Below the pieces are notes generated by a model that did no database searches, had not been told where the DNA came from, and saw nothing but the letters and a program-made list of their open reading frames with translations. Source: Escherichia coli (lineage in GTDB: Bacteria; Pseudomonadota; Gammaproteobacteria; Enterobacterales; Enterobacteriaceae). Taken from it: a DNA stretch of 64,000 nt. Location of the stretch: the NCBI RefSeq assembly GCF_030384885.1, contig NZ_CP128613.1; one strand, given 5' to 3'. The position numbers and the translations under genes were made by a program. Position 1 is the stretch's first letter. Each line of letters begins with the position of its first letter. Positions 1,429 through 64,000 of this stretch are shown one piece after another.

Positions 1429-2853
<1,425 letters not shown>

Positions 2854-2856
2854 GGG

Positions 2857-3753
2857 TTATTCCTTGTCTAAAACCTGACGAATAAAGCCGCCGTGTTGAT
2901 CCAGGCGTTTTTTAGCTTCTGCGGCATCGAGATTTTTCAGCACCATCACAATGGCCGTTTTGCAGTTGCGCTCGCAGGCAATTAACGCCGCTTCCGCTTG
3001 TTCGGCGTTACATCCGGTGGCGTTTTTAACGATATTGACCTGGCGCACATGCAATTTTTCGTTGGTGGCGACCACATCGACCATCAGGTTGCCGAACACT
3101 TTGCCGGATTTAATCATCAGCCCGGTAGAGAGCATATTGAGCACCAGTTTCTGCGCTGTGCCTGCTTTCATTCGCGAAGAACCGGTAACCACTTCGGCAC
3201 CAACCACCGGAGTAATAGCAAACTCAGCGGTGGTTGAAACGGCGCTCCCCGGATTACAGGAAATGCCCACTGTGCGGCAACCGAGTTGGCGTGCGTATTC
3301 CAGCCCGGCAATCACATACGGAGTGCGACCACTGGCAGCAATACCAACCACCACATCCTGTGCGGTTAAGCCGATATTTTTTAGATCGTTAACGCCACCT
3401 TCCCGGCTATCTTCTGCGCCTTCCACCGCGTGCTGAATGGCATATTCACCGCCAGCAATCAAACCAACCACCAGGCCCGGTTTGACGCCGTAGGTCGGCG
3501 GACATTCGCTGGCATCAAGAATACCCAGACGACCGGAAGTCCCCGCACCGATGTAAATCAGTCGACCGCCGCCGCTTACCTGGGCGTGGATAACATCGAT
3601 CGCTGCGGCGATATCCGGCAGTACACGCTCAACGGCGAGTGGTACGGTTTTATCTTCATCGTTGATAATCCGGCACATTTCCAGCGTTGATACGCGGTCA
3701 ATTTCAGCCGAAGCGGCGTTCGAGCCTTCGGTAATCATCTTTTCAAGTTGCAT
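2857..3753 (-). CDS. murQ: N-acetylmuramic acid 6-phosphate etherase
   Basis: 298-aa SIS-domain ORF recognised as MurQ; upstream of murP. Confidence 0.9.
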
Positions 3754-3916
3754 CGGTGGTGACCTTACTATTTACGATCAAATAATTGCAGATGGATGGA
3801 ATCATATATCCCGAATTGACAGACTTAAAGGAATCATTGAGTCTACACTCGCAGAGTGTGAAGAGCGTCATAAGAACTTAAGCGGAATTTTTGCTGCCAG
3901 CCCAGGAGAGTGGAAG

Positions 3917-27057: not shown

Positions 27058-27114
27058 GCAGATAGCAAAAAAGCGCCTTTAGGGCGCTTTTTTACATTGG
27101 TGGGTCGTGCAGGA
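27058..27114. repeat. 57-bp direct repeat copy 1 (terminator hairpin plus 17-nt 3' end of tRNA-Lys)
   Basis: Identical to 27214..27270; contains aaaaaagcgcctttagggcgctttttt and tggtgggtcgtgcagga. Confidence 0.8.
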
Positions 27115-27213
27115 TGACTCGCTTCGCTCGCCCTTCGGGCCGTCGCCGCGAGCGGCTCCGTTGTTTCGCTGCGCTCAACTCGAACCTGCTGCAGGTTCGA
27201 ATCTTTGAGTATC

Positions 27214-27270
27214 GCAGATAGCAAAAAAGCGCCTTTAGGGCGCTTTTTTACATTGGTGGGTCGTGCAGGA
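27214..27270. repeat. 57-bp direct repeat copy 2 (overlaps the genuine lysV 3' end and its terminator)
   Basis: Exact 57/57 identity with 27058..27114 by direct comparison. Confidence 0.8.
27223..27250 (-). terminator. Rho-independent terminator of the valU-valX-valY-lysV operon
   Basis: On minus strand gcgcc-ctaaa-ggcgc hairpin followed by tttttt immediately after lysV CCA. Confidence 0.7.
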
Positions 27271-27329
27271 TTCGAACCTGCGACCAATTGATTAAAAGTC
27301 AACTGCTCTACCAACTGAGCTAACGACCC
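27254..27329 (-). tRNA. lysV: tRNA-Lys (UUU)
   Basis: Reverse complement reads GGGTCGTTAGCTCAGTTGGTAGAGCAGTTGACTTTTAATCAATTGGTCGCAGGTTCGAATCCTGCACGACCCACCA. Confidence 0.9.
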
Positions 27330-27333
27330 GAAG

Positions 27334-27409
27334 TGGTGGGTGATGACGGGATCGAACCGCCGACCCCCTCCTTGTAAGGGAGGTGCTCTCCCAGCTGAGC
27401 TAATCACCC
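27334..27409 (-). tRNA. valY: tRNA-Val (UAC)
   Basis: Reverse complement reads GGGTGATTAGCTCAGCTGGGAGAGCACCTCCCTTACAAGGAGGGGGTCGGCGGTTCGATCCCGTCATCACCCACCA; 4 nt from lysV. Confidence 0.9.
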
Positions 27410-27455
27410 ACTTCGGTACTTCACATTTTTACAAGAAATCTAGCTGGCGAGAAAG

Positions 27456-27531
27456 TGGTGGGTGATGACGGGATCGAACCGCCGACCCCCTCCTTGTAAG
27501 GGAGGTGCTCTCCCAGCTGAGCTAATCACCC
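27456..27531 (-). tRNA. valX: tRNA-Val (UAC)
   Basis: Second identical tRNA-Val copy. Confidence 0.9.
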
Positions 27532-27574
27532 ACTTCTCAATTTCTTGCTACACGGCGGAGACTACATAAGTAGT

Positions 27575-27650
27575 TGGTGGGTGATGACGGGATCGAACCG
27601 CCGACCCCCTCCTTGTAAGGGAGGTGCTCTCCCAGCTGAGCTAATCACCC
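27575..27650 (-). tRNA. valU: tRNA-Val (UAC)
   Basis: Third identical tRNA-Val copy, first gene of the operon. Confidence 0.9.
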
Positions 27651-30348: not shown

Positions 30349-30424
<76 letters not shown>

Positions 30425-30463
30425 AATTTTGCACCCAGCAAATTTGGTACGTAAACGACTCGT

Positions 30464-30539
<76 letters not shown>

Positions 30540-50756: not shown

Positions 50757-51677
50757 TTAAATGTATAACGACGATTCTCCCACCGGGCGCGTTTTAAAGC
50801 GACGGTGGATCCAGAGGTACTGCTCCGGTGCGCGCATAATCTCTTTCTCGATAATCTTGTTCATATAGGCAGCGGCTTGATTTTCATCTGCCGGGTAGCC
50901 TTCCATTTCAGGGGTGATGAACAACCGATATCCGCTGTAATCCGTTTTTCTGACCATCGTTACGGTCAACATGGCTGCGCCAGAGAGACGAGAGAGGACA
51001 TAGGTGCCATTGGTTGTAGCAACATTTTCTACCGCAAAGAACGGTGCGAAGGAGCTACCTTTACGACCATAATCCTGATCGGGAGCAAACCATACGGCTT
51101 CACCTTTCTTCAGCGCACCGACAATACCGCGCAGATTATTTCTGCCGATCATCGCTTTGTTAGAGCGCATGCGACCACGGGTCTGCACCCATTCCATCAG
51201 CTGATTATTATGCGGACGATAGGTGGCCATCATTGGCTGACATAGTCCCATCACGCGGCCGCCCAATTCCAGCGACATAAAATGGACGCCGACAACCATC
51301 ACGCCACGATTCTGCAGTTGTGCGCGTTTGAGGTTATCCAGCCCTTCAACATCAAACCATTTACGTACGCGACTGTCGGGCCAGAACCATGCCATGCCGG
51401 TTTCTACCAGCGCCATGCCGAGTGAACGAAAGTTTTCGGCAATCATCTTCTCGCGCTCTTCAGCAGAATGCTGTGGGAAACAAAGTTCCAGGTTCTTACG
51501 GGCGATAGATTCACGACGTTTCAGGAATGGTCGCGCCATCGTGCCGATACGCGTGCCGAGAAAACAGAGAACAGGGTAAGGAAGCTGTACCCAAAGCCAG
51601 AGTACACCAAGCCCAAACCATGTGAGCCAGTAGCGAGGATGTAGAAACTCGCGGGAAAATTTGCATTTTGGAAACAT
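50757..51677 (-). CDS. lpxP: Lipid A biosynthesis palmitoleoyltransferase (cold-induced)
   Basis: Track ORF trimmed to MFPKCKFSREFLHPRYWLTW... giving 306 aa. Confidence 0.8.
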   Translation of the reverse strand: MFPKCKFSREFLHPRYWLTWFGLGVLWLWVQLPYPVLCFLGTRIGTMARPFLKRRESIARKNLELCFPQHSAEEREKMIAENFRSLGMALVETGMAWFWPDSRVRKWFDVEGLDNLKRAQLQNRGVMVVGVHFMSLELGGRVMGLCQPMMATYRPHNNQLMEWVQTRGRMRSNKAMIGRNNLRGIVGALKKGEAVWFAPDQDYGRKGSSFAPFFAVENVATTNGTYVLSRLSGAAMLTVTMVRKTDYSGYRLFITPEMEGYPADENQAAAYMNKIIEKEIMRAPEQYLWIHRRFKTRPVGESSLYI

Positions 51678-52030: not shown

Positions 52031-52273
52031 ATGATTTATTTATGGATGTTTCTCGCCCTGTGTATTGTCTGCGTAAGCGGATACATCGGTCAGGTACTGA
52101 ACGTGGTCTCGGCGGTCTCTTCTTTCTTCGGCATGGTGATCCTCGCTGCACTCATTTACTACTTCACCATGTGGTTAACTGGCGGTAATGAACTAGTGAC
52201 GGGGATATTTATGTTTCTTGCCCCGGCTTGTGGCTTGATGATTCGCTTTATGGTGGGGTATGGCAGGCGGTAG
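52031..52273 (+). CDS. yfdY: Small inner-membrane protein (DUF2545)
   Basis: 80-aa ORF with two predicted TM helices. Confidence 0.6.
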   Translation: MIYLWMFLALCIVCVSGYIGQVLNVVSAVSSFFGMVILAALIYYFTMWLTGGNELVTGIFMFLAPACGLMIRFMVGYGRR

Positions 52274-52349
52274 TAGTTCAGGATGGATCATTTGGGCAGG
52301 TGCTCACATCATCAACAGATATGATTGTTCACCTGCCATGTGACAGACG

Positions 52350-52625
52350 CTATCGCACAGGATGAATAAGATAATTCGCCTTTGTCGGAAAAGGGGGCGT
52401 GATGTCTTCTGTGAGATTTAATGGTGGCGCATCTTCTCTCATCTTAAACAAAATCGCCTGTGATGGTTGAAGTTTTGTAGAATGAGTTGTCGTCATCACT
52501 GACGTTTTTTCTGTCTCTTTATAGCTCGTCTCACTTCCACCACCAGAAATGGAAAATGCAAAAACATTGCATGCCATAATAGAGACCAATAAAAATAAGC
52601 TAAAAAGCATTAAGTTTACTTTCAT
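52350..52625 (-). CDS. ypdI: Small exported protein / putative lipoprotein
   Basis: 91-aa ORF with lipoprotein-type signal (LLVSIMAC). Confidence 0.55.
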   Translation of the reverse strand: MKVNLMLFSLFLLVSIMACNVFAFSISGGGSETSYKETEKTSVMTTTHSTKLQPSQAILFKMREDAPPLNLTEDITPPFPTKANYLIHPVR

Positions 52626-52767
52626 AGAAAGTTATCCTGAGAATGGCTCACTGAGAACCTACGATGTTATGGCTGTATTTACATTTAATTAATCAGTATT
52701 TACATCGATATAATAAATGACATCTCTTTGTGGTATATAAGAATAGTTCTCTGCGACAGGAAGCATA

Positions 52768-52785
52768 TTCCTACAATTGTAAGAC
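52768..52785. promoter_or_regulatory. EvgA-box-like 18-bp inverted repeat upstream of yfdX
   Basis: TTCCTACA-AT-TGTAAGAC; resembles the TTCYTACA..TGTARGAA EvgA box as I recall it. Confidence 0.5.
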
Positions 52786-52805
52786 TAAAATACTTCTTGC
52801 GATAA

Positions 52806-52823
52806 TAACTACAACTGTAAGAT
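52806..52823. promoter_or_regulatory. Second, weaker EvgA-box-like repeat upstream of yfdX
   Basis: TAACTACA-AC-TGTAAGAT. Confidence 0.4.
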
Positions 52824-52920
52824 AACCCTTTCAAAATGACCGTTGCTCTCTGATTTCTCATTTCATGCTCACCCAATATGATGGCGGCGTTTTCTAAAAC
52901 TGTTAAAGAATGAGGTAAGT

Positions 52921-53553
52921 ATGAAACGTTTAATTATGGCTACGATGGTCACAGCGATTTTGGCATCATCAACTGTATGGGCTGCTGATAATGCACCGGT
53001 AGCAGCACAACAGCAAACTCAGCAAGTTCAGCAAACCCAGAAAACTGTAGCAGCAGAGCGTATCTCTGAACAGGGTTTATATGCGATGCGTGACGTGCAG
53101 GTAGCGCGCCTGGCTCTGTTTCATGGCGATCCGGAAAAGGCAAAAGAACTGACCAATGAAGCTTCAGCTTTGCTGTCAGATGACAGTACTGAATGGGCAA
53201 AGTTCGCTAAGCCAGGTAAAAAGACCAATATCAATGATGACCAATATATTGTCATTAATGCATCTGTCGGAATTTCTGAGAGTTATGTAGCGACACCAGA
53301 AAAAGAAGCAGCGATAAAAATTGCGAATGAAAAAATGGCGAAAGGAGATAAAAAGGGCGCAATGGAAGAGCTTCGCCTGGCCGGTGTTGGCGTAATGGAA
53401 AACCAATATCTGATGCCGCTTAAACAGACTCGTAATGCACTTGCTGATGCGCAGAAACTGCTTGATAAAAAGCAATACTACGAGGCAAACCTGGCGCTTA
53501 AAGGTGCGGAAGATGGAATCATCGTCGATAGCGAAGCACTGTTTGTGAACTAA
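52921..53553 (+). CDS. yfdX: Periplasmic protein YfdX (EvgA-regulon member)
   Basis: 210-aa ORF with signal peptide [21 protein letters not shown]. Confidence 0.8.
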
Positions 53554-53606
53554 TGCTGACAGGCAGCATATTGAAGTAAAAGATTTTACTCCCTCCAGGC
53601 GACAAT

Positions 53607-53644
53607 TTTTTATGACCACAATACGACCGATTGTGGTCATAAAA
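53607..53644. repeat. Perfect 15-bp inverted repeat with 7-nt loop
   Basis: ttttatgaccacaat-acgaccg-attgtggtcataaaa, 54 nt downstream of the yfdX stop. Confidence 0.7.
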
Positions 53645-53797
53645 TTATTTGGCGCTCGCGGTTCTATAAACACGCATTTTCTATTCCTCAAAGTAAACAT
53701 TAATAATCCCGTGTCATCACGAAATCATTGTTTATGTTATGTTTTATGGTACGATTTAAAAATCGTAATCATTTCCCTAACTGTAAATCACAATCGC

Positions 53798-53815
53798 TTC
53801 TTACAGTTGTAAGAA
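53798..53815. promoter_or_regulatory. Perfect EvgA-box-like palindrome upstream of frc
   Basis: TTCTTACA-GT-TGTAAGAA, about 250 nt upstream of the frc start. Confidence 0.55.
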
Positions 53816-54066
53816 TAACATCACAAATGTCGCGGCTCTCTCTGATTACCGCAAACCAATATTTATCATATTCTTCTTTTCGTCCTCACTACTTACCATG
53901 CAAAAAGGAATTGGAAGTGGCGATGAAATGATTTCCAGCACTTGATACAGGAATTTAAAAATATCGAGTGCAGCTACGACGATATTTTGCGGATTATTTA
54001 TAGAGGGCGTTATGCCTTAAATAAACGCTAAATTAACATATATTTAATTAACTAATAGGTATTGCT

Positions 54067-55317
54067 ATGTCAACTCCACTTCAAGGAATTAAAGTTCTCG
54101 ATTTCACCGGTGTGCAATCTGGCCCATCTTGTACTCAGATGCTGGCGTGGTTTGGCGCTGACGTCATTAAAATTGAACGTCCCGGCGTTGGTGACGTAAC
54201 GCGTCGCCAGCTGCGAGATATTCCTGATATCGATGCACTTTACTTCACCATGCTTAACAGCAACAAACGTTCTATTGAATTAAATACCAAAACAACGGAA
54301 GGCAAAGAGGTAATGGAAAAGCTGATCCGCGAAGCTGATATCTTGGTCGAGAACTTTCATCCAGGGGCTATTGATCACATGGGCTTCACCTGGGAGCATA
54401 TTCAGGAAATCAACCCACGTCTGATTTTTGGTTCGATCAAAGGGTTTGATGAGTGTTCGCCTTATGTGAATGTAAAAGCCTATGAAAACGTTGCTCAGGC
54501 AGCGGGTGGCGCGGCATCCACTACGGGTTTTTGGGACGGCCCGCCGCTGGTAAGCGCTGCAGCGTTGGGTGACAGCAACACCGGAATGCATTTGCTGATC
54601 GGTTTACTTGCTGCTTTGCTGCATCGCGAAAAAACGGGGCGTGGGCAACGAGTTACCATGTCAATGCAGGATGCCGTGTTGAACCTTTGCCGCGTGAAAT
54701 TACGTGACCAGCAGCGCCTCGATAAGCTGGGTTATCTGGAAGAATACCCGCAGTATCCGAATGGCACATTTGGCGACGCAGTACCACGCGGTGGTAATGC
54801 GGGTGGTGGCGGTCAGCCTGGCTGGATCCTGAAATGTAAAGGCTGGGAAACCGATCCTAACGCCTATATTTATTTCACTATTCAGGAGCAAAACTGGGAA
54901 AACACCTGTAAAGCTATCGGCAAACCAGAATGGATTACCGATCCGGCATACAGTACAGCTCATGCCCGACAGCCACATATTTTCGATATTTTTGCTGAAA
55001 TCGAAAAATACACTGTCACTATTGATAAACATGAAGCGGTGGCCTATTTGACTCAGTTTGATATTCCTTGTGCACCGGTTTTAAGTATGAAAGAAATTTC
55101 ACTTGATCCCTCTTTGCGCCAAAGTGGCAGTGTTGTCGAAGTGGAGCAACCGTTGCGTGGAAAATATCTGACAGTTGGTTGTCCAATGAAATTCTCTGCC
55201 TTTACGCCGGATATTAAAGCTGCGCCGCTATTAGGTGAACATACCGCTGCTGTATTGCAGGAGCTGGGTTATAGCGACGATGAAATTGCTGCAATGAAGC
55301 AAAACCACGCCATCTGA
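54067..55317 (+). CDS. frc: Formyl-CoA:oxalate CoA-transferase
   Basis: 416-aa family III CoA-transferase ORF recognised as Frc/YfdW. Confidence 0.9.
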
Positions 55318-55370
55318 TATTAACGGGGGCTTCTGGCTCCCAATTTATAAAAATTTCGAGGTTATTAATC

Positions 55371-57065
55371 ATGTCAGATCAACTTCAAATGACAGATGGT
55401 ATGCATATCATCGTTGAAGCATTAAAACAGAATAATATTGACACTATTTATGGTGTTGTAGGTATTCCTGTGACGGATATGGCGCGCCATGCCCAGGCGG
55501 AAGGCATTCGTTATATTGGTTTTCGTCATGAGCAATCTGCAGGCTATGCGGCTGCGGCAAGCGGTTTTCTTACCCAAAAGCCAGGGATCTGCCTGACCGT
55601 TTCTGCGCCAGGATTCCTCAATGGTTTGACCGCATTGGCCAACGCAACAGTAAATGGTTTTCCGATGATCATGATCAGCGGCTCCAGCGATCGCGCGATC
55701 GTTGATCTCCAGCAAGGTGATTATGAAGAGCTGGACCAAATGAATGCGGCAAAACCCTATGCCAAAGCGGCATTCCGCGTTAACCAGCCGCAGGATCTTG
55801 GCATTGCGTTGGCACGCGCTATCCGGGTCTCCGTTTCGGGTCGCCCTGGCGGTGTTTATCTTGATTTGCCAGCAAATGTCCTGGCTGCGACGATGGAAAA
55901 GGACGAGGCATTAGCCACTATTGTTAAAGTTGAAAACCCATCGCCAGCGTTATTGCCATGCCCGAAGTCAGTCACTAGTGCAATTTCGCTGTTAGCAAAA
56001 GCAGAACGGCCATTAATTATCCTTGGTAAAGGCGCGGCGTATTCACAAGCTGATGAGCAGCTTCGTGAGTTTATTGAAAGTACCCAGATTCCATTCCTGC
56101 CAATGTCTATGGCGAAAGGGATCCTGGAAGATACGCATCCACTTTCTGCGGCGGCTGCGCGTTCGTTTGCGCTGGCAAATGCTGATGTTGTCATGCTTGT
56201 TGGGGCGCGACTGAATTGGTTACTGGCGCACGGTAAAAAAGGATGGGCGGCAGATACACAGTTTATTCAACTGGATATAGAACCGCAGGAAATTGACAGC
56301 AATCGACCCATTACTGTGCCAGTCGTTGGCGATATTGCATCCAGTATGCAAGGTATGCTGGCAGAACTGAAACAAAACACATTTACGACTCCACTGGTGT
56401 GGCGCGATATTTTAAATATCCACAAGCAGCAAAATGCGCAAAAAATGCATGAAAAGTTAAGTACAGATACCCAACCATTAAATTACTTTAATGCATTGAG
56501 TGCGGTGCGCGATGTATTGCGCGAGAACCAGGATATTTATTTAGTTAATGAAGGGGCAAATACCCTGGATAATGCACGAAATATTATTGATATGTATAAA
56601 CCACGTCGTCGTCTGGATTGTGGCACCTGGGGTGTCATGGGCATCGGTATGGGCTATGCCATCGGTGCTAGCGTGACCTCTGGTTCTCCGGTTGTCGCCA
56701 TTGAAGGTGATAGTGCTTTTGGTTTCAGTGGGATGGAGATTGAAACGATTTGTCGATATAACCTGCCGGTGACAATCGTTATTTTTAATAATGGCGGCAT
56801 CTACAGAGGAGACGGTGTTGATCTCAGTGGCGCTGGTGCACCATCACCAACAGATCTATTGCACCATGCAAGGTATGACAAATTAATGGATGCATTTCGT
56901 GGCGTTGGATATAACGTCACCACGACAGATGAACTTCGTCATGCTTTAACCACCGGTATTCAGTCGCGCAAACCGACCATTATTAATGTGGTCATCGACC
57001 CAGCAGCAGGAACTGAAAGTGGCCATATTACCAAACTTAACCCAAAACAAGTCGCTGGTAATTAA
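55371..57065 (+). CDS. oxc: Oxalyl-CoA decarboxylase (ThDP-dependent)
   Basis: 564-aa ORF with ThDP-binding motif ([31 protein letters not shown]). Confidence 0.9.
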
Positions 57066-57133
57066 ATACTGACATCGTCTCCTCTTGCCAACTCATTATC
57101 GATGGTGAGGGGACCCTTATCGGAAATACTATT

Positions 57134-58078
57134 ATGCTAACATTTTTTATTGGCGATTTATTGCCTATTATCGTAATCATGCTGTTGGGTTATTTTAGCG
57201 GCAGACGAGAAACTTTTTCAGAAGATCAAGCCCGGGCATTTAATAAACTGGTATTAAACTACGCTCTTCCTGCGGCCCTATTTGTTTCTATTACCCGGGC
57301 AAACAGGGAAATGATTTTTGCGGACACTCGCCTGACCCTTGTATCACTTGTGGTTATTGTCGGATGTTTCTTTTTCTCCTGGTTTGGTTGCTACAAATTT
57401 TTTAAACGTACCCATGCAGAAGCAGCAGTATGTGCATTAATTGCAGGTTCACCTACCATTGGATTCCTGGGGTTTGCAGTTCTCGACCCTATTTATGGTG
57501 ATTCCGTATCAACAGGTTTAGTGGTAGCAATTATTTCTATTATTGTTAACGCAATTACTATTCCTATTGGTCTGTATTTGCTGAATCCCTCCTCAGGAGC
57601 GGATGGTAAGAAGAATAGCAATCTGAGCGCGTTAATCTCTGCGGCAAAGGAGCCAGTCGTATGGGCACCTGTTCTGGCAACGATCTTGGTGTTGGTTGGG
57701 GTAAAAATTCCGGCAGCATGGGATCCAACCTTTAATCTGATTGCGAAGGCTAACTCAGGGGTAGCGGTATTCGCTGCGGGGTTGACTCTGGCTGCACATA
57801 AATTCGAGTTCAGTGCTGAAATTGCTTATAACACCTTCCTGAAGCTGATTCTGATGCCACTGGCACTGCTTCTCGTTGGTATGGCATGTCATTTGAACAG
57901 CGAACATCTGCAGATGATGGTACTGGCAGGCGCATTACCGCCGGCATTCTCCGGAATCATTATTGCCAGCCGGTTTAATGTCTACACCCGCACTGGTACA
58001 GCGTCATTGGCTGTTAGCGTGCTGGGTTTTGTCGTCACGGCTCCCTTGTGGATTTATGTCAGTCGACTGGTTTCATAA
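57134..58078 (+). CDS. yfdV: AEC-family membrane transporter
   Basis: 314-aa polytopic ORF. Confidence 0.75.
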
Positions 58079-58151
58079 TTAATCATGTTATTAATTTTCA
58101 TAAATGCCGAAGAGTCTTTTCACCTTCGGCTTTTTTTCAAGGCATAAGCAA

Positions 58152-59297
58152 ATGACCAATAATGAATGCAAAGGGCCGTTTGAAGGCTTATTAGTTATCG
58201 ATATGACGCATGTCCTTAATGGGCCTTTCGGAACTCAACTTCTTTGTAATATGGGCGCAAGGGTAATTAAAGTTGAGCCGCCAGGTCATGGTGATGATAC
58301 CCGCACATTTGGTCCCTATGTGGATGGACAGTCACTCTATTACAGTTTTATTAATCATGGCAAAGAGAGTGTGGTTCTTGATTTAAAGAATGATCACGAT
58401 AAAAGCATATTTATAAATATGCTTAAACAAGCGGATGTATTAGCTGAGAATTTTCGCCCAGGTACAATGGAAAAACTGGGGTTTTCATGGGAAACGCTAC
58501 AAGAAATCAACCCGCGTCTCATCTATGCTTCATCGTCAGGTTTTGGGCATACTGGCCCGCTAAAAGATGCTCCTGCCTACGATACCATCATTCAGGCAAT
58601 GAGCGGGATAATGATGGAAACGGGATACCCTGATGCTCCGCCTGTGCGCGTGGGTACCTCTCTTGCGGATTTATGTGGCGGTGTCTATTTATTCAGTGGA
58701 ATCGTGAGTGCGCTTTATGGCCGCGAAAAAAGCCAGCGAGGGGCGCATGTCGATATCGCGATGTTTGATGCCACTCTGAGTTTTCTGGAGCATGGACTGA
58801 TGGCATATATCGCGACAGGGAAGTCACCACAACGTCTGGGAAATCGTCACCCCTACATGGCACCTTTTGATGTTTTCGATACTCAGGATAAACCAATTAC
58901 GATTTGTTGTGGTAATGACAAGCTTTTTTCTGCGTTATGCCAGGCACTGGATCTGACGGAACTTGTTGATGATCCCCGATTTATCAGCAATATTTTACGC
59001 GTACAAAACCAGGCTATTCTTAAACAATATATTGAGCGGACGTTAAAAACGCAGGCAGCTGAAGTTTGGTTAGCCAGAATACATGAAGTTGGTGTACCCG
59101 TAGCGCCGTTATTAAGTGTGGCTGAGGCCATTAATTTGCCACAAACTCAGGCGAGAAATATGTTGATTGAAGCCGGGGGAATAATGATGCCGGGTAATCC
59201 GATAAAAATCAGCGGCTGCGCGGACCCGCATGTTATGCCGGGAGCGGCAACGCTCGACCAGCATGGGGAACAAATTCGCCAGGAATTCTCATCGTAA
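58152..59297 (+). CDS. yfdE: Acetyl-CoA:oxalate CoA-transferase (family III)
   Basis: Track ORF trimmed to MTNNECKGPFEGLLVIDMTHVLNGPFG... giving 381 aa; paralogous to frc. Confidence 0.8.
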   Translation: MTNNECKGPFEGLLVIDMTHVLNGPFGTQLLCNMGARVIKVEPPGHGDDTRTFGPYVDGQSLYYSFINHGKESVVLDLKNDHDKSIFINMLKQADVLAENFRPGTMEKLGFSWETLQEINPRLIYASSSGFGHTGPLKDAPAYDTIIQAMSGIMMETGYPDAPPVRVGTSLADLCGGVYLFSGIVSALYGREKSQRGAHVDIAMFDATLSFLEHGLMAYIATGKSPQRLGNRHPYMAPFDVFDTQDKPITICCGNDKLFSALCQALDLTELVDDPRFISNILRVQNQAILKQYIERTLKTQAAEVWLARIHEVGVPVAPLLSVAEAINLPQTQARNMLIEAGGIMMPGNPIKISGCADPHVMPGAATLDQHGEQIRQEFSS

Positions 59298-59352
59298 ATG
59301 TTAGATGTGCTGGTAAATAGCTCCCACATTTGAACATTGTGGGAGCCGCTAT

Positions 59353-62300
59353 TTAGTCATTTTGTTGACAGAAAACCGCAATCTCCTGGTCTAACTCTGC
59401 AATGTGTTCTTTAACAGAGTTCAGCAACTTAAGAATTTCAGGCTTGCTGTCATCTGAAACGGGCGTTATTTCTAACTGGTGGCTAAGATTAATCAACTTT
59501 TGCAAATTCAGGATGTTAGCCGCACCGTGGATGCGATGAATACACTGATGGAAAGTTCTGTTATCGCCAGCTTCTAACGCATGAAACGCAGCGGGTAGAT
59601 CTTTATGCGTTTCATGCTGGAAAGTCATGAGAATCTCCTGCATCAGTTGTAGATCGTTCGCCGTATTATTTTTCAGGGCCTCGATATCAAGGTGGCGATA
59701 CTGAGGTGCAATATGCGCAACCTGGTGTAACTGACTTAAATGTGTTTTCAGTACATCCAGGGTTAACGGTTTGAACAAACATAAGTTCATGCCGCAATTT
59801 AACCCTTTGTCGCGTTCATTAGCCTGTGCGTTGGCCGTAAGCCCCCAGACGGGTAAAGAATAATGTTGCTCACGGAGTTTGCGGGTCAACTCAAAACCAT
59901 CCATATTCGGCATATTAACGTCAGTAATAAACAGATCATAATGCTGCATACTGACTTTGTGTAGCGCCTGTACACCATCAGAGGCTTCATCAACATCATA
60001 CCCTAATAGGTTTAGCTGGCGTTTGAGTAAAAGTCTGTTTGTCGGATGATCATCCGCGATTAATATGTTTAATTTTTCAGGCAGTGTGACGGGTTGTTCT
60101 GGTTTTGCCTCGACAGTCGCCACTTGCTGGGTAATTTCTACCGGGATTGTGATTGTAAAAGTCGTTCCTATGCCGGGATGACTTTCTAATGACAAATCGC
60201 CCTGCATGTTTTTGATTAATTCTTTGCAGATCATGAGGCCTAAACCAGAACCTGTTTGCTGACGACCTGCTGTTGTTTGGCTATAGCGTTTAAACAGTTG
60301 TTGTTGTTCTTCCTGCGATAATCCGCTTCCGGTGTCCATAATCGTCATTTTGATAACAGCGTGGTAGTCATCAATATGAACCAGGGAAGTCGTAATTTTT
60401 ACTGCCCCCTCGGTGGTAAATTTAAGGGCATTACTCAGTAAATTAGACAGCACCTGCTTAAATGCTTGAGGGTCGATTTTAACCAGGTAGCGTTCAGGAA
60501 GCGTACTGCTGCAATTTAATGCGATGGATTTGCTTGCAGCAATCGCACCGAAAGAATGACAAGTGTTCTGGACTAAAGCAGGGATATCGACCCATTGTGG
60601 TTGAAGTTGATAGTTACCCGATTCAATTTTGTCGACATCAAGGATTTCACCAATTAAGCCGAGGAGCGACTGTCCGGTGGCGTAAGCAAGTGAAATCGCC
60701 TCCACACGTTGCTCCTTGCTAAGACCTGAACCCGACAGAAGTTCCAGGAAGCCCATAATGGAGCTTATTGGTGTTCTTATTTCGTGACTCATTGTTGCCA
60801 GGAACTGGCTTTTTGCGACAGTTGCATTGATAGCTTTATTTCTTTCTACTTCGAGTGCATGAATTAAATCACGCGTCTCGGTAATATCTTGCCAACCACA
60901 AATATATACTGCATTGTCACTTGCAGGTAAATTGCATAATGTATGCCAATGATTAATGCATCTTTTTTCAATACCATTATTAATTTCAAAAACTTGGCTA
61001 TATATTGTTCTGTTTTCTTTTGTTTCTGCTGTGACTTCATGCACATTAGAAAAAACATCTTTAAAGGGGGAGTCACTGTTTTCTAATGGTAACATTGCAT
61101 TTTTGTAGTAATCAGCAGTGAAATAATGTTCAAATGCACTATTGTGACTAATGACATTACCTTGCCAGTTTACAACATAAGTTGGATTCGGTAAGGAATC
61201 CGAGAGTGCTTTCCGGAATGATATTTGGTTTTCTAAATCACCCTGAATTACCTTACGACGACGAACTGAGCGTAACAGGTAGAATCCCCATAAAAGGCTA
61301 CTGCCAACTAATAAAACGGATAAAGTCGTAACAATGTAAAATTGCTCACTATAGAGGTCCCATGTGTCAATGGTCACATTGGGCATTTTGATCCATTTTT
61401 CCGTCAGGCGCAGAACTTCGCTTGGGGGAATTGCATTCAATGCTTTATTAATAATATCCTTAAGTTCTGGTTCTCCGCGAGGAAAAGCGAACGAAAGCGA
61501 TGCATTCTCAACGCCGGGAATAAGAAAATGATAAAGCTCATTAGGATAGTAATGGTCGATCATGTAACGCGAATTTAGCTGTGTCGCGACCAGGGCATCA
61601 AGTTCACCTTCCTTAACCTTGTGAAATGCAGCGCTAGCATTATCGACTTGTATCCACTCAACCTCCGGATACATCTCTTTCAATTGCGAATGAAGCTCAT
61701 AATAATATGGAATGGCAACTTTCATTCCTTTTTTTAAAGTTTGTTCACTATCAGGCGCTTTTTGCATGACGAAAACGTAAGGCGTTGTTATGAATGCTTC
61801 AGCAAATAAAACATTATTTTCTCGATCTTCACTATAAATAGCACCAGGTAAGATATCCCATCCATCGGGATTAAGCTGTGTTCCGGCATGGATATTGTGT
61901 GAAACGGTGATCGGAGAAAATTTTAAACCTGTTTGCAATGTAATAATATTAAGAATATCCCCCATAACGCCCCGAACCGAGCCATTTTCATCAGTCATAG
62001 AATAGGGGGGCGAGTAAGGATTTTCCAGCACCCTTAATTCGGGATGCTGCTTAATCCACAGTTTTTCATGTTCAGTGAGTTCTAATGGTTTGTTCAGAAA
62101 GGCCAGGTTCCCTGTATCAAGCCAATTTTGTGATACTTCATAGCGAACTTCATTTGTTAAAGCATCGACAAATCGATTGAGTACTTCATTAAGAACAACT
62201 GATTCTTTTCTGGTTAAGAAGAAATTATATTGGCGCGGTGTACTATAATAATTTACTACATTTAAGGAGTGAGTAAAATATCGGGAAATCATACTACTGG

Positions 62301-62946
62301 TAATGATGTTACTACCCATAAAGTAATCATTATGTCCGGTAGAAACGGATGCCAATGCCTGATATAAATTTGTAAAAGAGATAATTGTTGCTTTGGGAAA
62401 TGATTGGTGAATTACCTCGTCGGGGGGGTAATTTGCTACTCGCGCAATATTCACTGGTTTCGGCGAGGTTAGCGGTCGCATTGAATCGTGGAGGGTGGTG
62501 ACCAGCGCCGGAAAGGTAATTATCAATGGTTTGGTTGCAGCAATGTCCTCATTAACAGGCGGCGAAGCAACTAAATGTGATAACACGATATCGACTTCAC
62601 CTTCTTCCAGCGCGTCCATTGCTTTTTGATGATTAGGGTATTCCCGGAGTGTTAATTTGATATTTAATGCTTTTTTTAAAAGATTTAAATAATCAGCATT
62701 AATACCACGAACCCGTTGCTGCGAATCGGTATGCAATAATGTCGCTGTTTTTGACTTGTGTACTGCAATCACAAGATTTTTTTTGCTTGCCAGCCAACGC
62801 AACTCCTTGTTGCTCAGACGCAGTGGATCAAGTGTGACACGATTGTTACTACTGATGCCACGATATTCAATGTAATCTTCGTCTGCGAAACTTATAGTCG
62901 ACCAAAGACAACAAGAGAGAAGAAAAAAATAGGTTAAAAACTTCAT
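59353..62946 (-). CDS. evgS: Hybrid sensor histidine kinase EvgS
   Basis: Track ORF trimmed to MKFLTYFFLLSCCLW... giving 1197 aa; two periplasmic binding-protein domains, HisKA, HATPase, receiver and HPt domains. Confidence 0.9.
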   Translation of the reverse strand: MKFLTYFFLLSCCLWSTISFADEDYIEYRGISSNNRVTLDPLRLSNKELRWLASKKNLVIAVHKSKTATLLHTDSQQRVRGINADYLNLLKKALNIKLTLREYPNHQKAMDALEEGEVDIVLSHLVASPPVNEDIAATKPLIITFPALVTTLHDSMRPLTSPKPVNIARVANYPPDEVIHQSFPKATIISFTNLYQALASVSTGHNDYFMGSNIITSSMISRYFTHSLNVVNYYSTPRQYNFFLTRKESVVLNEVLNRFVDALTNEVRYEVSQNWLDTGNLAFLNKPLELTEHEKLWIKQHPELRVLENPYSPPYSMTDENGSVRGVMGDILNIITLQTGLKFSPITVSHNIHAGTQLNPDGWDILPGAIYSEDRENNVLFAEAFITTPYVFVMQKAPDSEQTLKKGMKVAIPYYYELHSQLKEMYPEVEWIQVDNASAAFHKVKEGELDALVATQLNSRYMIDHYYPNELYHFLIPGVENASLSFAFPRGEPELKDIINKALNAIPPSEVLRLTEKWIKMPNVTIDTWDLYSEQFYIVTTLSVLLVGSSLLWGFYLLRSVRRRKVIQGDLENQISFRKALSDSLPNPTYVVNWQGNVISHNSAFEHYFTADYYKNAMLPLENSDSPFKDVFSNVHEVTAETKENRTIYSQVFEINNGIEKRCINHWHTLCNLPASDNAVYICGWQDITETRDLIHALEVERNKAINATVAKSQFLATMSHEIRTPISSIMGFLELLSGSGLSKEQRVEAISLAYATGQSLLGLIGEILDVDKIESGNYQLQPQWVDIPALVQNTCHSFGAIAASKSIALNCSSTLPERYLVKIDPQAFKQVLSNLLSNALKFTTEGAVKITTSLVHIDDYHAVIKMTIMDTGSGLSQEEQQQLFKRYSQTTAGRQQTGSGLGLMICKELIKNMQGDLSLESHPGIGTTFTITIPVEITQQVATVEAKPEQPVTLPEKLNILIADDHPTNRLLLKRQLNLLGYDVDEASDGVQALHKVSMQHYDLFITDVNMPNMDGFELTRKLREQHYSLPVWGLTANAQANERDKGLNCGMNLCLFKPLTLDVLKTHLSQLHQVAHIAPQYRHLDIEALKNNTANDLQLMQEILMTFQHETHKDLPAAFHALEAGDNRTFHQCIHRIHGAANILNLQKLINLSHQLEITPVSDDSKPEILKLLNSVKEHIAELDQEIAVFCQQND

Positions 62947-62950
62947 GTGG

Positions 62951-63565
62951 TTAGCCGATTTTGTTACGTTGCGCAAATGTGTAAAGATCCATCAGTGATT
63001 TACATTCTAATTTTTCCATCAGGCGACTTTTATAAGTGCTGACAGTTTTGTTGCTGATGAACATTTTCTCGGCAATGTCATTGTTATCTTTGCCATCGAG
63101 GATATAGCGCATGACACTAATTTCTTGTTTCGATAAGGAGTCGAGTTTTTGCTGGTCGGACGTTAAACTTCCAACAAATCGATTGAGAGAGAAGGGGAAA
63201 TAGCAGTAGCCATTTTTTGCTGCTTCAATAGCCGCAATGATATTGTTCATGCCCTCTTTTTTACTGACGAATCCATTAGCGCCAGCATCAGCACAATGTT
63301 TCCCGTAAAAATGGTCATTTTTAGCGGAGACGATAATAATAATTCCGCTATATTGGCGCTTCCTCAGTGTTTCTAACACCTGGATACCGTTAACTCCGGG
63401 GATATCGACGTCAATGATGACGATATCAGGCTTAAGTGTTTCCACCCGTTGAACGGCGCTTCCGCCTTCAGTCAACTCGGCTAAGATTTCAATATCGTTT
63501 TTGATCAATAAATTACGAATTGCTGCGATAGCAAGAGGATGGTCATCAATAATTATTGCATTCAT
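62951..63565 (-). CDS. evgA: NarL/FixJ-family response regulator EvgA
   Basis: 204-aa ORF MNAIIIDDHPLAIAAIRNLL... with receiver domain and LuxR-type HTH. Confidence 0.9.
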   Translation of the reverse strand: MNAIIIDDHPLAIAAIRNLLIKNDIEILAELTEGGSAVQRVETLKPDIVIIDVDIPGVNGIQVLETLRKRQYSGIIIIVSAKNDHFYGKHCADAGANGFVSKKEGMNNIIAAIEAAKNGYCYFPFSLNRFVGSLTSDQQKLDSLSKQEISVMRYILDGKDNNDIAEKMFISNKTVSTYKSRLMEKLECKSLMDLYTFAQRNKIG

Positions 63566-63789
63566 AGATTATTCCCTTTGCAATGAAGCATCTCCCTTCT
63601 CCCTGTAGTAATACAGACATAAGGCATCATCTCATTTTCTCAATAAAAATAAGAAAATTTGCGCTTCCTTTAAGATAATTCGGTAAGTATACCATATAAA
63701 TAGTCAGCATAAATAAAATGTCAACAATAAATTCAGGGATAATACCGCTAACTTATAGTTTCAAATGATTACTATAAGGCTTCTCATTA

Positions 63790-63807
63790 ATCCTACAGGC
63801 GTAAGAA
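63790..63807. promoter_or_regulatory. EvgA-box-like inverted repeat in the evgA-emrK divergent promoter region
   Basis: ATCCTACA-GG-CGTAAGAA. Confidence 0.45.
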
Positions 63808-63980
63808 TTGTATTGCAAAAGTCACGGTTCAGTCCTCTGTTGTATCTTCTGCAACTCCTTTAAATTAGGCCTCCAACGTTCCTGGGATAATGTGTAACAC
63901 ATGCACTGTGTTTGATATGAAGAATGAATACTCTTTTCATTCAATTCATAAATTTCATCTATGCGAAATGAGAGATAATA

Positions 63981-64000
63981 GTGGAACAGATTAATTCAAA
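63981..64000 (+). CDS. emrK: First codons of a multidrug efflux membrane-fusion protein gene, truncated by the window end
   Basis: gtg gaa cag att aat tca reads (M)EQINS, consistent with my memory of the EmrK N-terminus; divergent from evgA. Confidence 0.35.

Follow-up and report, generated by a model that had tools for sequence, protein, structure and literature searches.

The window, a stretch of 64,000 nucleotides, is a segment of the E. coli chromosome that carries yfdY, ypdI, yfdX, frc-oxc-yfdV-yfdE, evgS-evgA and emrK. Gene names and positions follow RefSeq, in which an identical strain and K-12 are annotated. The gene yfdY (52031-52273) is on the plus strand. It is followed by ypdI (52350-52625, minus strand), which encodes a lipoprotein of 91 amino acids and is divergent from yfdX. 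The yfdX gene (52921-53553, plus strand) encodes a periplasmic protein of the YfdX family (Pfam PF10938, E = 1.5e-44). Further along the plus strand are frc, also named yfdW (54067-55317), and the operon frc-oxc-yfdV-yfdE (54067-59297; Mullins 2013), whose products are a formyl-CoA transferase, an oxalyl-CoA decarboxylase, a transporter and an acetyl-CoA:oxalate CoA-transferase, respectively. On the minus strand are evgS (59353-62946), the gene of a sensor kinase, and evgA (62951-63565), the gene of the response regulator that would act on the boxes described below. An earlier note, made from the sequence of this DNA, had remarked that the regulator and its candidate targets are co-localized, and this is borne out, with evgS-evgA at 59353-63565 and evgA 6-10 kb from the boxes at 52768, 52806 and 53798. 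The allele of the region found in this strain is a minority one, since an identity of at least 99% is seen in only 16-23 of about 5400 genomes.

Between yfdX and frc there is a perfect hairpin with a 15-bp stem (53608-53644, plus strand), found in both the inverted-repeat listing and the terminator scan. The stem is kept in Y. vastinensis despite diverged flanks. This hairpin is terminator-like and, judged by its sequence, would separate the transcription units of yfdX and frc.

The EvgA boxes

The pattern TTCYTACA-NN-TGTARGAA (TTCYTACANNTGTARGAA) was scanned over the whole 64-kb window with up to 3 mismatches allowed. It has four matches, compared with 0.46 expected from dinucleotide shuffles, and none of 100 shuffles reached four. 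All four are located within spacers of known EvgA targets. Box 1, TTCCTACAATTGTAAGAC (52768-52785, listed without a strand), has one mismatch, while box 2, TAACTACAACTGTAAGAT (52806-52823, plus strand), has three; the two are 38 bp apart, centre to centre. The EvgA box of the frc (yfdW) promoter, TTCTTACAGTTGTAAGAA (53798-53815, plus strand), matches without any mismatch. The fourth box, ATCCTACAGGCGTAAGAA (63790-63807, plus strand), which has two mismatches, lies in the evgA-emrK spacer and is that of the emrK promoter. The inverted repeats at 52768, 52806 and 53798, which the earlier note had listed, are real: the sequence and the pattern scan agree on all three, and the copy at 53798 is perfect, as had been claimed.

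In ten E. coli lineages, all 48 specified box positions are constant, and of 754 intergenic positions elsewhere 102 vary (p = 0.0026). Within the boxes, variation is confined to the central NN, where 3 of 6 positions differ between lineages. The half-sites of box 1 are invariant in these lineages, its central N alone being variable, and the frc box is invariant as well; the 28 bp upstream of the frc box are a substitution hot spot. Compared with the spacer around them, the boxes are under purifying selection. K-12 has half-sites identical to those described here in all three boxes. The boxes are also retained in Y. vastinensis and Buttiauxella, box 2 being kept in the Y. vastinensis copy. The frc box and the next 34 nt form the best conserved stretch of the 513-bp yfdX-frc spacer, out to Y. 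vastinensis. These 34 nt, TAACATCACAAATGTCGCGGCTCTCTCTGATTAC (53816-53849, plus strand), include CTCTGATT at 53840-53847 and hardly differ between E. coli and Y. vastinensis.

Another palindrome, TACGATTTAAAAATCGTA (53749-53766), in which two symmetrical positions are changed relative to K-12, was considered as the site of a second regulator. It was rejected, as CFT073, L013 and Y. vastinensis do not keep the palindrome intact.

Promoter geometry

EvgA promoters have a common rigid layout, which is composed of the box, a proximal element and a -10-like hexamer. The proximal element, TCYTATT/CTCTGATT, is located 25-32 nt after the box, and the hexamer 53-54 nt after it. In seven of seven promoters a TAnnnT starts 53 or 54 nt after the box, which is matched by none of 3000 shuffles and none of 3000 random shifts. 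Layout columns C9, T26, C27 and T31 are invariant across the promoters compared, and columns T26, C27, Y28, A30 and T31 are common to EvgA promoters. The promoter-proximal half-site is perfect (..GAA) in five of the six known promoters.

The layout, as defined in this analysis, consists of nine features drawn from six or seven promoters, some of which are perhaps paralogous (yfdX/frc, safA/ydeP), which would inflate the apparent conservation. The gadE promoter was left out, because no site with up to 3 mismatches is present upstream of gadE. Boxes read toward their gene have 8-9 of the nine features, and read the other way they have 1-5. Box 2 scores 9/9 toward yfdX and 2/9 in the opposite direction, the frc box scores 9/9, and the emrK box scores 8/9 toward emrK and 2/9 toward evgA. 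Autoregulation of evgA through the emrK box, another candidate, does not fit the layout with this last score. The yfdX promoters of Buttiauxella, which are outside the feature-defining set, have 8 of the 9 features.

In the yfdX promoter, the proximal element CTCTGATT (52848-52855, plus strand) is 25-32 nt after box 2. The same element is found at an identical offset in the frc promoter, in the Y. vastinensis copies and in the yfdX promoters of Buttiauxella. The predicted core promoter of yfdX, TTCTCA-16-TATGAT (52855-52882, plus strand), was found by a sigma-70 consensus scan, independently of the layout. Its -10 hexamer is 54-59 nt after box 2, TATGATGGCGG is conserved in Y. vastinensis, and transcription is predicted to start at about 52889, giving a leader of 32 nt. 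In the frc promoter, the predicted EvgA-dependent -10 hexamer is TATTCT (53869-53874, plus strand), which is in the register of 54-59 nt after the box and is replaced by TATTAT in Y. vastinensis. An alternative frc -10 is TATCAT at 53864-53869. The predicted start of frc is at about 53881, with a leader of about 186 nt.

Folding of this 186-nt leader is no better than that of shuffles (z = -1.53). A search for RNA elements in 52200-54150 gave no Rfam family at gathering score and one match at chance level (E = 0.38). A 15-codon ORF at 53899 was also rejected, as it lacks a Shine-Dalgarno sequence and is missing from L013 and Y. vastinensis. A proximal sigma-70-like promoter region of frc, TTTATA-17/18-AATAAA (53997-54026, plus strand), can be read from the sequence. 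By genomic SELEX, an RpoD-holoenzyme site TTTATA-18-AATAAT has been reported in the yfdX-frc spacer (Shimada 2014).

A different register, with a -10-like TATTTT/TGATTA at 28-34 nt after the box, is less likely, because yfdX, frc and emrK have no T-A start at that distance, whereas all seven promoters fit 53/54. In the 53/54 register the centre of the box would be near -74. The proximal element would then lie just upstream of the -35 position, where it may be touched by an additional EvgA protomer or belong to the core promoter.

Box 1 and the predicted ypdI promoter

The layout score of box 1 is 8/9 toward ypdI, on the minus strand, and 2/9 toward yfdX. In the ypdI direction, the layout columns give a promoter-proximal element, TTCTTATA (52736-52743, minus strand), 25-32 nt after box 1, and a TAnnnT located 53 nt after the box on the minus strand gives the predicted ypdI -10 hexamer, TATTAT (52710-52715). 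The start of ypdI is predicted at about 52702 on the minus strand. From its register, box 1 is probably the site of the divergent ypdI promoter rather than of the yfdX promoter. The earlier note had placed two boxes upstream of yfdX; this is right for box 2, with its 9/9, and probably not for box 1, the register and orientation of which suit the divergent ypdI promoter.

In an evgS-constitutive mutant, the reported log2 induction is 8.37 for frc, 6.97 for yfdX and 2.75 for ypdI, and ypdI is reported to be 5.5-fold up alongside the EvgA regulon on exposure to GSH. We tentatively describe the ypdI-yfdX spacer as a pair of divergent EvgA-dependent promoters, each with its own box in the regulon-wide register, an arrangement to which we give slightly less than even odds. 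If it is correct, ypdI is a direct EvgA target so far unassigned, likely the seventh, and multi-site occupancy by EvgA of the kind seen with BvgA is suggested. We regard ypdI as a candidate additional direct target, the induction of which is modest and could be indirect. Box 1, set for ypdI, may also aid yfdX as an upstream site.

A possible but doubtful alternative is that both boxes act only on yfdX, as tandem activator sites, and that the induction of ypdI is indirect or due to read-through. The literature that we examined names only yfdX and yfdWUVE as targets of these repeats, box 1 is closer to the consensus than box 2, and the induction of ypdI (log2 2.75) is far below that of yfdX (6.97). 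Moreover, Y. vastinensis keeps a degraded equivalent of box 1 without an adjoining ypdI. However, tandem sites for yfdX do not account for the scores of box 1 in the two directions (2/9 toward yfdX and 8/9 toward ypdI), for the TATTAT at the exact register, or for the perfect promoter-proximal half-site (..GAA), which box 1 has only in the ypdI direction. In addition, ypdI is induced along with the EvgA regulon in two data sets that are independent of each other.

About 8% of E. coli genomes have a 38-bp duplication in this region that produces a third box. This box is unregistered and lies between the ypdI and yfdX promoters, neither register being disturbed.

Base composition and H-NS

The earlier note had described the intergenic regions as AT-rich. 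The computed GC content agrees for the ypdI-yfdX spacer (0.342) and the yfdX-frc spacer (0.349), as compared with 0.45-0.48 in yfdX and frc and 0.497 in the window, but not for the yfdY-ypdI spacer (0.461), at the left end of the span that had been described. The AT excess of the two spacers is modest, because other promoter spacers in the window are AT-rich too (GC 0.378-0.390). Low GC is also a property of the genes between ypdI and evgA, both included (0.38-0.48, with GC3 of 0.36-0.45; ypdI has a GC of 0.384 and a GC3 of 0.359), while the GC3 of yfdY, alaC, ypdA and fryA is about 0.60-0.63. The block 52274-64000 has a GC content of 0.429, compared with 0.515 for 1-50000. What stands out in composition is therefore a low-GC block that spans at least 11.7 kb, from ypdI to emrK, and its description as an islet has to be abandoned.

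Xenogeneic silencing of yfdX and frc by H-NS is the weakest part of the interpretation; it may take place, on the basis of published binding in vitro. Sites for H-NS were found in the yfdX-frc and emrK-evgA spacers by genomic SELEX (Shimada 2014), and in published gel shifts H-NS binds the evgA promoter, the promoters of ydeP and ydeO being bound too. EvgA would then act by counter-silencing of H-NS. In the literature we found neither an H-NS site for the ypdI-yfdX spacer nor derepression of yfdX or frc by loss of H-NS, and yfd, frc and oxc are not mentioned in the paper on binding of H-NS to the evgA promoter.

The low GC of the spacers could instead be ordinary promoter composition, with H-NS having no real silencing role at yfdX and frc. 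This we consider unlikely. It would agree with the GC of the other spacers in the window, which is only slightly above that of these two, with the lack of in-vivo derepression data in the literature, and with the absence of the ypdI-yfdX spacer from the RpoD tables with H-NS marks in Shimada 2014. Against it stand the GC3 of the ypdI-to-emrK block, which is 0.36-0.45 while that of its neighbours is about 0.6, the in-vitro mapping of H-NS to the yfdX-frc and emrK-evgA spacers, and the binding of H-NS to the evgA, ydeP and ydeO promoters.

Distribution of the module

The locus is core in E. coli, being present in 5423 of 5426 complete genomes, and no integrase, transposase or tRNA is annotated from lpxP to emrY. 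In Y. vastinensis, the module yfdX-frc-oxc-yfdV-yfdE-evgS-evgA, which has 80-96% amino-acid identity to that of E. coli, adjoins arsRBC and a type I-F CRISPR-Cas locus. The homology between E. coli and Y. vastinensis stops about 25 bp to the left of box 1. Buttiauxella keeps yfdX-evgSA with an EvgA-type box 121 bp before yfdX, and no gene was found there after the evgA-side box. The distribution scan, which gave only nine loci, is incomplete as a picture because it relies on exact peptide words.

Horizontal acquisition of the module, as the earlier note had proposed, is plausible. Of the properties of a genomic island, an atypical composition and a different context in relatives, as in Y. vastinensis, were found; within-species variability and mobility genes were not, the locus being core and its borders free of such genes. 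The acquisition, if there was one, is ancient and now fixed, because nearly all E. coli genomes carry the locus. The arrangements in Y. vastinensis and Buttiauxella fit with old horizontal movement, and are evidence for a transfer of the yfdX-to-evgA module, along with its cis-elements, from one genus to another.

Control of yfdX and frc by EvgA

The observations as a whole are best explained if the palindromes are sites for EvgA~P that drive yfdX and frc through promoters of fixed geometry, a reading to which we assign a probability of about 0.9. At mildly acidic pH, EvgS would phosphorylate EvgA, a response regulator of the NarL/FixJ type, and dimers of EvgA~P would bind the 18-bp boxes. They would thereby switch on weak AT-rich promoters that have no good -35 and that are perhaps also covered by H-NS. 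This would result in two transcription units, yfdX from box 2 (52806) and frc-oxc-yfdV-yfdE from the perfect box (53798).

Published work supports this reading. A passage of Mullins 2013, citing Masuda & Church, places EvgA-bound inverted repeats before yfdX and yfdWUVE, and a passage of a review (PMC8147483), citing Itou 2009, gives the yfdX and frc promoters as bound by EvgA. Direct binding is cited second-hand in both. The yfdX promoter, as PyfdX-yfp, is a direct reporter of EvgA~P, and the emrK promoter is under direct regulation by EvgA (Roggiani 2017). In evgS-constitutive mutants, the genes with the strongest induction include frc, yfdX and oxc. The box matches thus agree with the published binding of EvgA and the evgS-dependent induction, which upholds the control by EvgA that the earlier note had suggested.

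It is very improbable that another regulator of the NarL/FixJ family, such as RcsB, and not EvgA, is the main user of the palindromes. RcsB and EvgA belong to the same protein family, and the TAAGAAT part of the box presumably resembles an RcsB half-site. In Klebsiella pneumoniae, RcsB has been reported to bind the yfdX promoter region and to be needed for the acid induction of yfdX. However, the induction of yfdX and frc in E. coli is tied to EvgS/EvgA in published work, and the same box is present at every known direct EvgA target, including emrK, which adjoins evgA. That the palindromes are chance matches in AT-rich DNA can be dismissed almost entirely, for although the match at 52806 has three mismatches and about 0.46 chance matches per window occur at such stringency, no shuffle gives four matches, variation spares the half-sites and affects the central NN positions, a fixed geometry follows downstream and the boxes are conserved across other genera.

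Comparison with known systems

The promoters of the K-12 EvgA regulon (ydeP, safA-ydeO, yegR, emrKY, yfdX and frc) have the same 18-bp repeat, with the same genes and the same regulator. The locus described here is the same system in another strain, and nothing essential is different. The EvgA box and regulon of K-12 reportedly go back to work by Masuda and Church in 2002 and 2003 and by Itou in 2009.

BvgA of Bordetella, which activates fha and ptx, is a homologue of EvgA. Promoters controlled by BvgA have a high-affinity inverted repeat far upstream, together with weaker sites that reach the -35 region. The EvgA promoters are similar in that the palindrome is upstream, with its centre placed near -74 by the predicted starts. 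They also have, abutting the -35, a TCYTA that resembles a half-site, being the core of TTCYTACA, and that follows the first half-site at a distance of exactly 42 bp. Unlike in the BvgA promoters, this proximal element is a putative site, which could instead belong to the core promoter.

In the kvhAS-yfdX-hdeDB locus of Klebsiella (Liu 2019), yfdX adjoins an evgAS-type two-component system among acid-stress genes, as it does here. The arrangement in Buttiauxella is like that in Klebsiella, yfdX-evgS-evgA being divergent from a gad-like decarboxylase gene, hdeB and hdeD. Unlike Klebsiella, E. coli and Y. vastinensis have the oxalate cassette frc-oxc-yfdV-yfdE separating yfdX from evgS, and this cassette has its own promoter with a box; furthermore, the direct regulator reported for yfdX of Klebsiella is RcsB, in contrast to E. 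coli. The gadE-mdtEF/hdeAB acid fitness island resembles the present locus in its low GC, its AT-rich promoters, the binding of H-NS in vitro and a dedicated activator. That island is silenced by H-NS, whereas silencing of yfdX and frc is putative here.

The regulation of yfdX and frc by EvgA is already known, and nothing is added here to that story. The earlier note had itself called it known biology, correctly, as EvgA repeats before yfdX and yfdWUVE were already published; a reading of the sequence alone has recovered a real regulon signature. We did not find in the literature the rigid layout with its proximal element and its register from the box to the -10, the assignment of box 1 to ypdI, or the 38-bp duplication with its third box. 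By its nine features, the layout tells apart the functional and the reverse orientation of every EvgA box. It gives predictions of start sites and could sharpen the prediction of EvgA sites in other Enterobacterales. The three-box allele could contribute to the strain-to-strain variation in the output of the EvgA regulon that was described by Roggiani 2017.

EvgA boxes and their target genes

The two palindromes upstream of yfdX, box 1 (52768-52785, TTCCTACAATTGTAAGAC) and box 2 (52806-52823, TAACTACAACTGTAAGAT), and the one upstream of frc (53798-53815, TTCTTACAGTTGTAAGAA), which an earlier note had described as EvgA-box-like, were found at exactly those positions by reading the sequence and by pattern scan. 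Box 1 has one mismatch to the consensus TTCYTACANNTGTARGAA, box 2 has three, and the frc box has none, so that it is a perfect copy as claimed. The whole 64-kb window contains only four matches at up to three mismatches, the fourth being the emrK box (63790-63807, ATCCTACAGGCGTAAGAA) in the evgA-emrK spacer. Dinucleotide shuffles gave a mean of 0.46 matches, and none of 100 reached four. In an alignment of the region from ten E. coli lineages, which are 3-6% divergent here, 0 of 48 specified box positions were variable, versus 102 of the remaining 754 positions in the two spacers (Fisher p = 0.0026). The unspecified central NN positions were variable in three of six cases (AT to AC in box 1, AC to GT in box 2). 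The frc box is invariant, though the 28 bp immediately upstream are a substitution hot spot.

The boxes lie in a locus that comprises lpxP (50757-51677, minus strand), yfdY (52031-52273, plus), ypdI (52350-52625, minus), yfdX (52921-53553, plus), frc (54067-55317, plus), oxc (55371-57065, plus), yfdV (57134-58078, plus), yfdE (58152-59297, plus), evgS (59353-62946, minus), evgA (62951-63565, minus) and emrK (start 63981, plus); regulator and candidate targets thus share the window, as the earlier note stated. The region is collinear, in reverse orientation, with K-12 MG1655 at 2.48-2.50 Mb, and strain 2013C-4282 is 100% identical around the boxes over 2.5 kb. A perfect hairpin with a 15-bp stem (53608-53644) is located 3' of yfdX and is kept even in the Yersinia copy, which fits two separate units, yfdX and frc-oxc-yfdV-yfdE, both of which have a box of their own.

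The PyfdX-yfp reporter has been described as "directly activated by phosphorylated EvgA", and PemrK likewise (Roggiani 2017). In evgS-constitutive mutants, frc, yegR and yfdX are among the most strongly induced genes (log2 8.37, 7.75 and 6.97, respectively). The palindromes are confirmed and, with half-sites invariant in ten lineages and published EvgA data in agreement, the proposed EvgA control of yfdX and frc is supported; this reading is correct and is already known biology, as the note itself remarked and the literature on the EvgA regulon bears out. The small additions made here are a regulon-wide promoter geometry, a probable assignment of box 1 to ypdI, a three-box allele and cross-genus mobility of the module; all four are leads for specialists and not discoveries.

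Two side observations concern the annotation. The 9-codon leader ORF evgL (MLHCKGNNL; 63562-63591, minus strand), b4781 in the K-12 annotation, is present and its stop overlaps the first codon of evgA; Gorelik 2024 reports translational coupling of this ORF under the control of CsrA. Rfam models identify two tRNA clusters, of four minus-strand and two plus-strand tRNAs, with an RtT element, at 27098-27650 and 30349-30536, which have no relation to the EvgA boxes.

A common layout of EvgA promoters

Nine layout features were defined on boxes read towards the gene, using three boxes of the window (yfdX box 2, frc, emrK) and three of K-12 (safA, ydeP, yegR). After the box, these promoters share C9 and A10, then G19, then T26-C27-Y28-(T/G)-A30-T31. 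The T26-T31 stretch is CTCTGATT in yfdX and frc, GTCCTATT in safA, GTCTTATT in ydeP and ATCCTATT in yegR, and in every promoter of the set positions 25-32 after the box form a TCYTATT/CTCTGATT element. These proximal elements are located at 52848-52855, 53840-53847 and 63832-63839, with another at 52736-52743 on the minus strand. Furthermore, a TAnnnT hexamer begins 53 or 54 nt after the box in 7/7 promoters, ypdI included, which was equalled by none of 3000 shuffles and none of 3000 random shifts. The yfdX hexamer is TATGAT (52877-52882), and a consensus scan independently predicts a promoter that consists of it and TTCTCA. Gene-facing orientations score 8-9 of nine, versus 1-5 for the reverse orientations of the same boxes, which have neither the proximal element nor the hexamer. 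The Buttiauxella yfdX promoters, which lie outside the feature-defining set, have 8/9 features, and the Yersinia copies have 9/9.

If the hexamer is the -10 element, the box centre would be near -74 and the TCYTA element at about -41 to -34; in an alternative, less likely register, the distance from box to -10 would be 28-34 nt. The EvgA half-site has TCYTA as its core, and the element occurs exactly 42 bp downstream of the first half-site, a distance of four helical turns. It could thus be a contact for a further EvgA protomer, as at BvgA-type promoters, or else part of the core promoter. The emrK box read towards evgA (63790-63807, minus strand) has 2/9 features, and a consensus-like TTGACA is found further on; evgA therefore seems to use a different, sigma-70-type promoter, apart from this box.

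Box 1 and ypdI

Box 1 scores 2/9 towards yfdX versus 8/9 on the minus strand towards ypdI, with TTCTTATA at 25-32 and TATTAT at 53-58 nt after the box. In that direction its perfect half-site TGTAGGAA is promoter-proximal, as in most known EvgA promoters. In an evgS-constitutive mutant, ypdI was up by log2 2.75, site inspection in that study being limited to genes above log2 4, and glutathione exposure raised it 5.5-fold, along with yfdX, yegR, ydeO, emrK, frc and oxc. By orientation and register, box 1 thus fits the divergent ypdI promoter (52702-52785, minus strand) better than that of yfdX. Together, orientation, register and induction lead us to propose that the ypdI-yfdX spacer contains a divergent pair of EvgA promoters with one box apiece, at a probability of roughly 0.45-0.65, because ypdI induction is modest and Yersinia keeps a degraded box 1 without ypdI. 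The ypdI gene evolves fast, with 42/276 columns variable among ten lineages and 71% amino-acid identity in a further copy of the locus (L013).

Strain CX04 carries a 38-bp tandem duplication (L007 509-626), equivalent to an insertion after 52770, whose length matches the spacing of the two boxes. A third, hybrid box, TAACTACAATTGTAAGAC, arises from it between boxes 1 and 2, and both outer box-to-promoter registers stay undisturbed. Full-length matches to the 118 bp of this allele occur in about 415 of 5426 complete E. coli genomes; in the remaining genomes the query aligns in two pieces covering 80 bp. The window strain itself has a minority allele of 52300-54120, with at least 99% identity in only 16-23 of about 5400 complete genomes and about 95% in most. 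An 8-2-8 palindrome, TACGATTTAAAAATCGTA (53749-53766), is situated 32 bp 5' of the frc box. K-12 and most lineages have TACGCTTTAAAAAGCGTA instead, with two symmetrical changes; as CFT073, L013 and Yersinia vastinensis have a broken palindrome here, it is probably not a conserved site.

Base composition, possible silencing and origin

The spacers are indeed AT-rich, as the earlier note held, with a GC content of 0.342 (ypdI-yfdX) and 0.349 (yfdX-frc); other promoter spacers in the window have 0.378-0.390. The extent of the islet was underestimated, since the genes from ypdI to evgA are also low in GC (GC3 0.36-0.45 versus 0.60-0.63 in yfdY, alaC, ypdA and fryA). The feature is a block that extends over no less than 11.7 kb (52274-64000, GC 0.429 versus 0.515 for 1-50000), with its left edge between yfdY and ypdI. 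By genomic SELEX, H-NS sites have been found in the yfdX-frc and emrK-evgA spacers, and an RNA-polymerase site, TTTATA-18-AATAAT, in the yfdX-frc spacer near 53997-54026; H-NS also binds the promoters of evgA, ydeP and ydeO. This indirect evidence makes xenogeneic silencing of yfdX and frc by H-NS a candidate.

The locus is core in E. coli (5423/5426 genomes), and the annotation has no mobility genes at its borders. Species-representative genomes were scanned with YfdX. Yersinia vastinensis IP38594 has the complete yfdX-frc-oxc-yfdV-yfdE-evgS-evgA module (L014 1-20612), with 80-96% amino-acid identity and conserved boxes, adjoining arsRBC and a type I-F CRISPR-Cas locus (csy3, cas6f). Homology to E. 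coli ends about 25 bp left of box 1; ypdI, yfdY and lpxP are absent, and an ORF-free stretch runs from about 2000 to 3900. In six Buttiauxella species (L015-L020; for example L016 7410-14559), yfdX is the immediate neighbour of evgS-evgA homologues and is divergent from hdeD (DUF308), hdeB (HdeA/B family) and a gad-like pyridoxal-dependent decarboxylase gene; frc and oxc are absent there. At a distance of 121 bp upstream of yfdX, four of these species (L016, L018-L020) carry an EvgA-type box with 2-3 mismatches; in the other two, a search allowing up to three mismatches gave no match. These arrangements show that regulator, yfdX and cis-elements travel together; E. coli and Yersinia have, in addition, the oxalate cassette, whose promoter carries a box of its own. 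With the low GC content, they support the suggested horizontal acquisition, of old origin. The last 54 residues of E. coli YfdX (100% amino-acid identity) are encoded on a 241-bp scaffold of Limosilactobacillus vaginalis DSM 5837, which almost certainly reflects contamination of the assembly with E. coli DNA.
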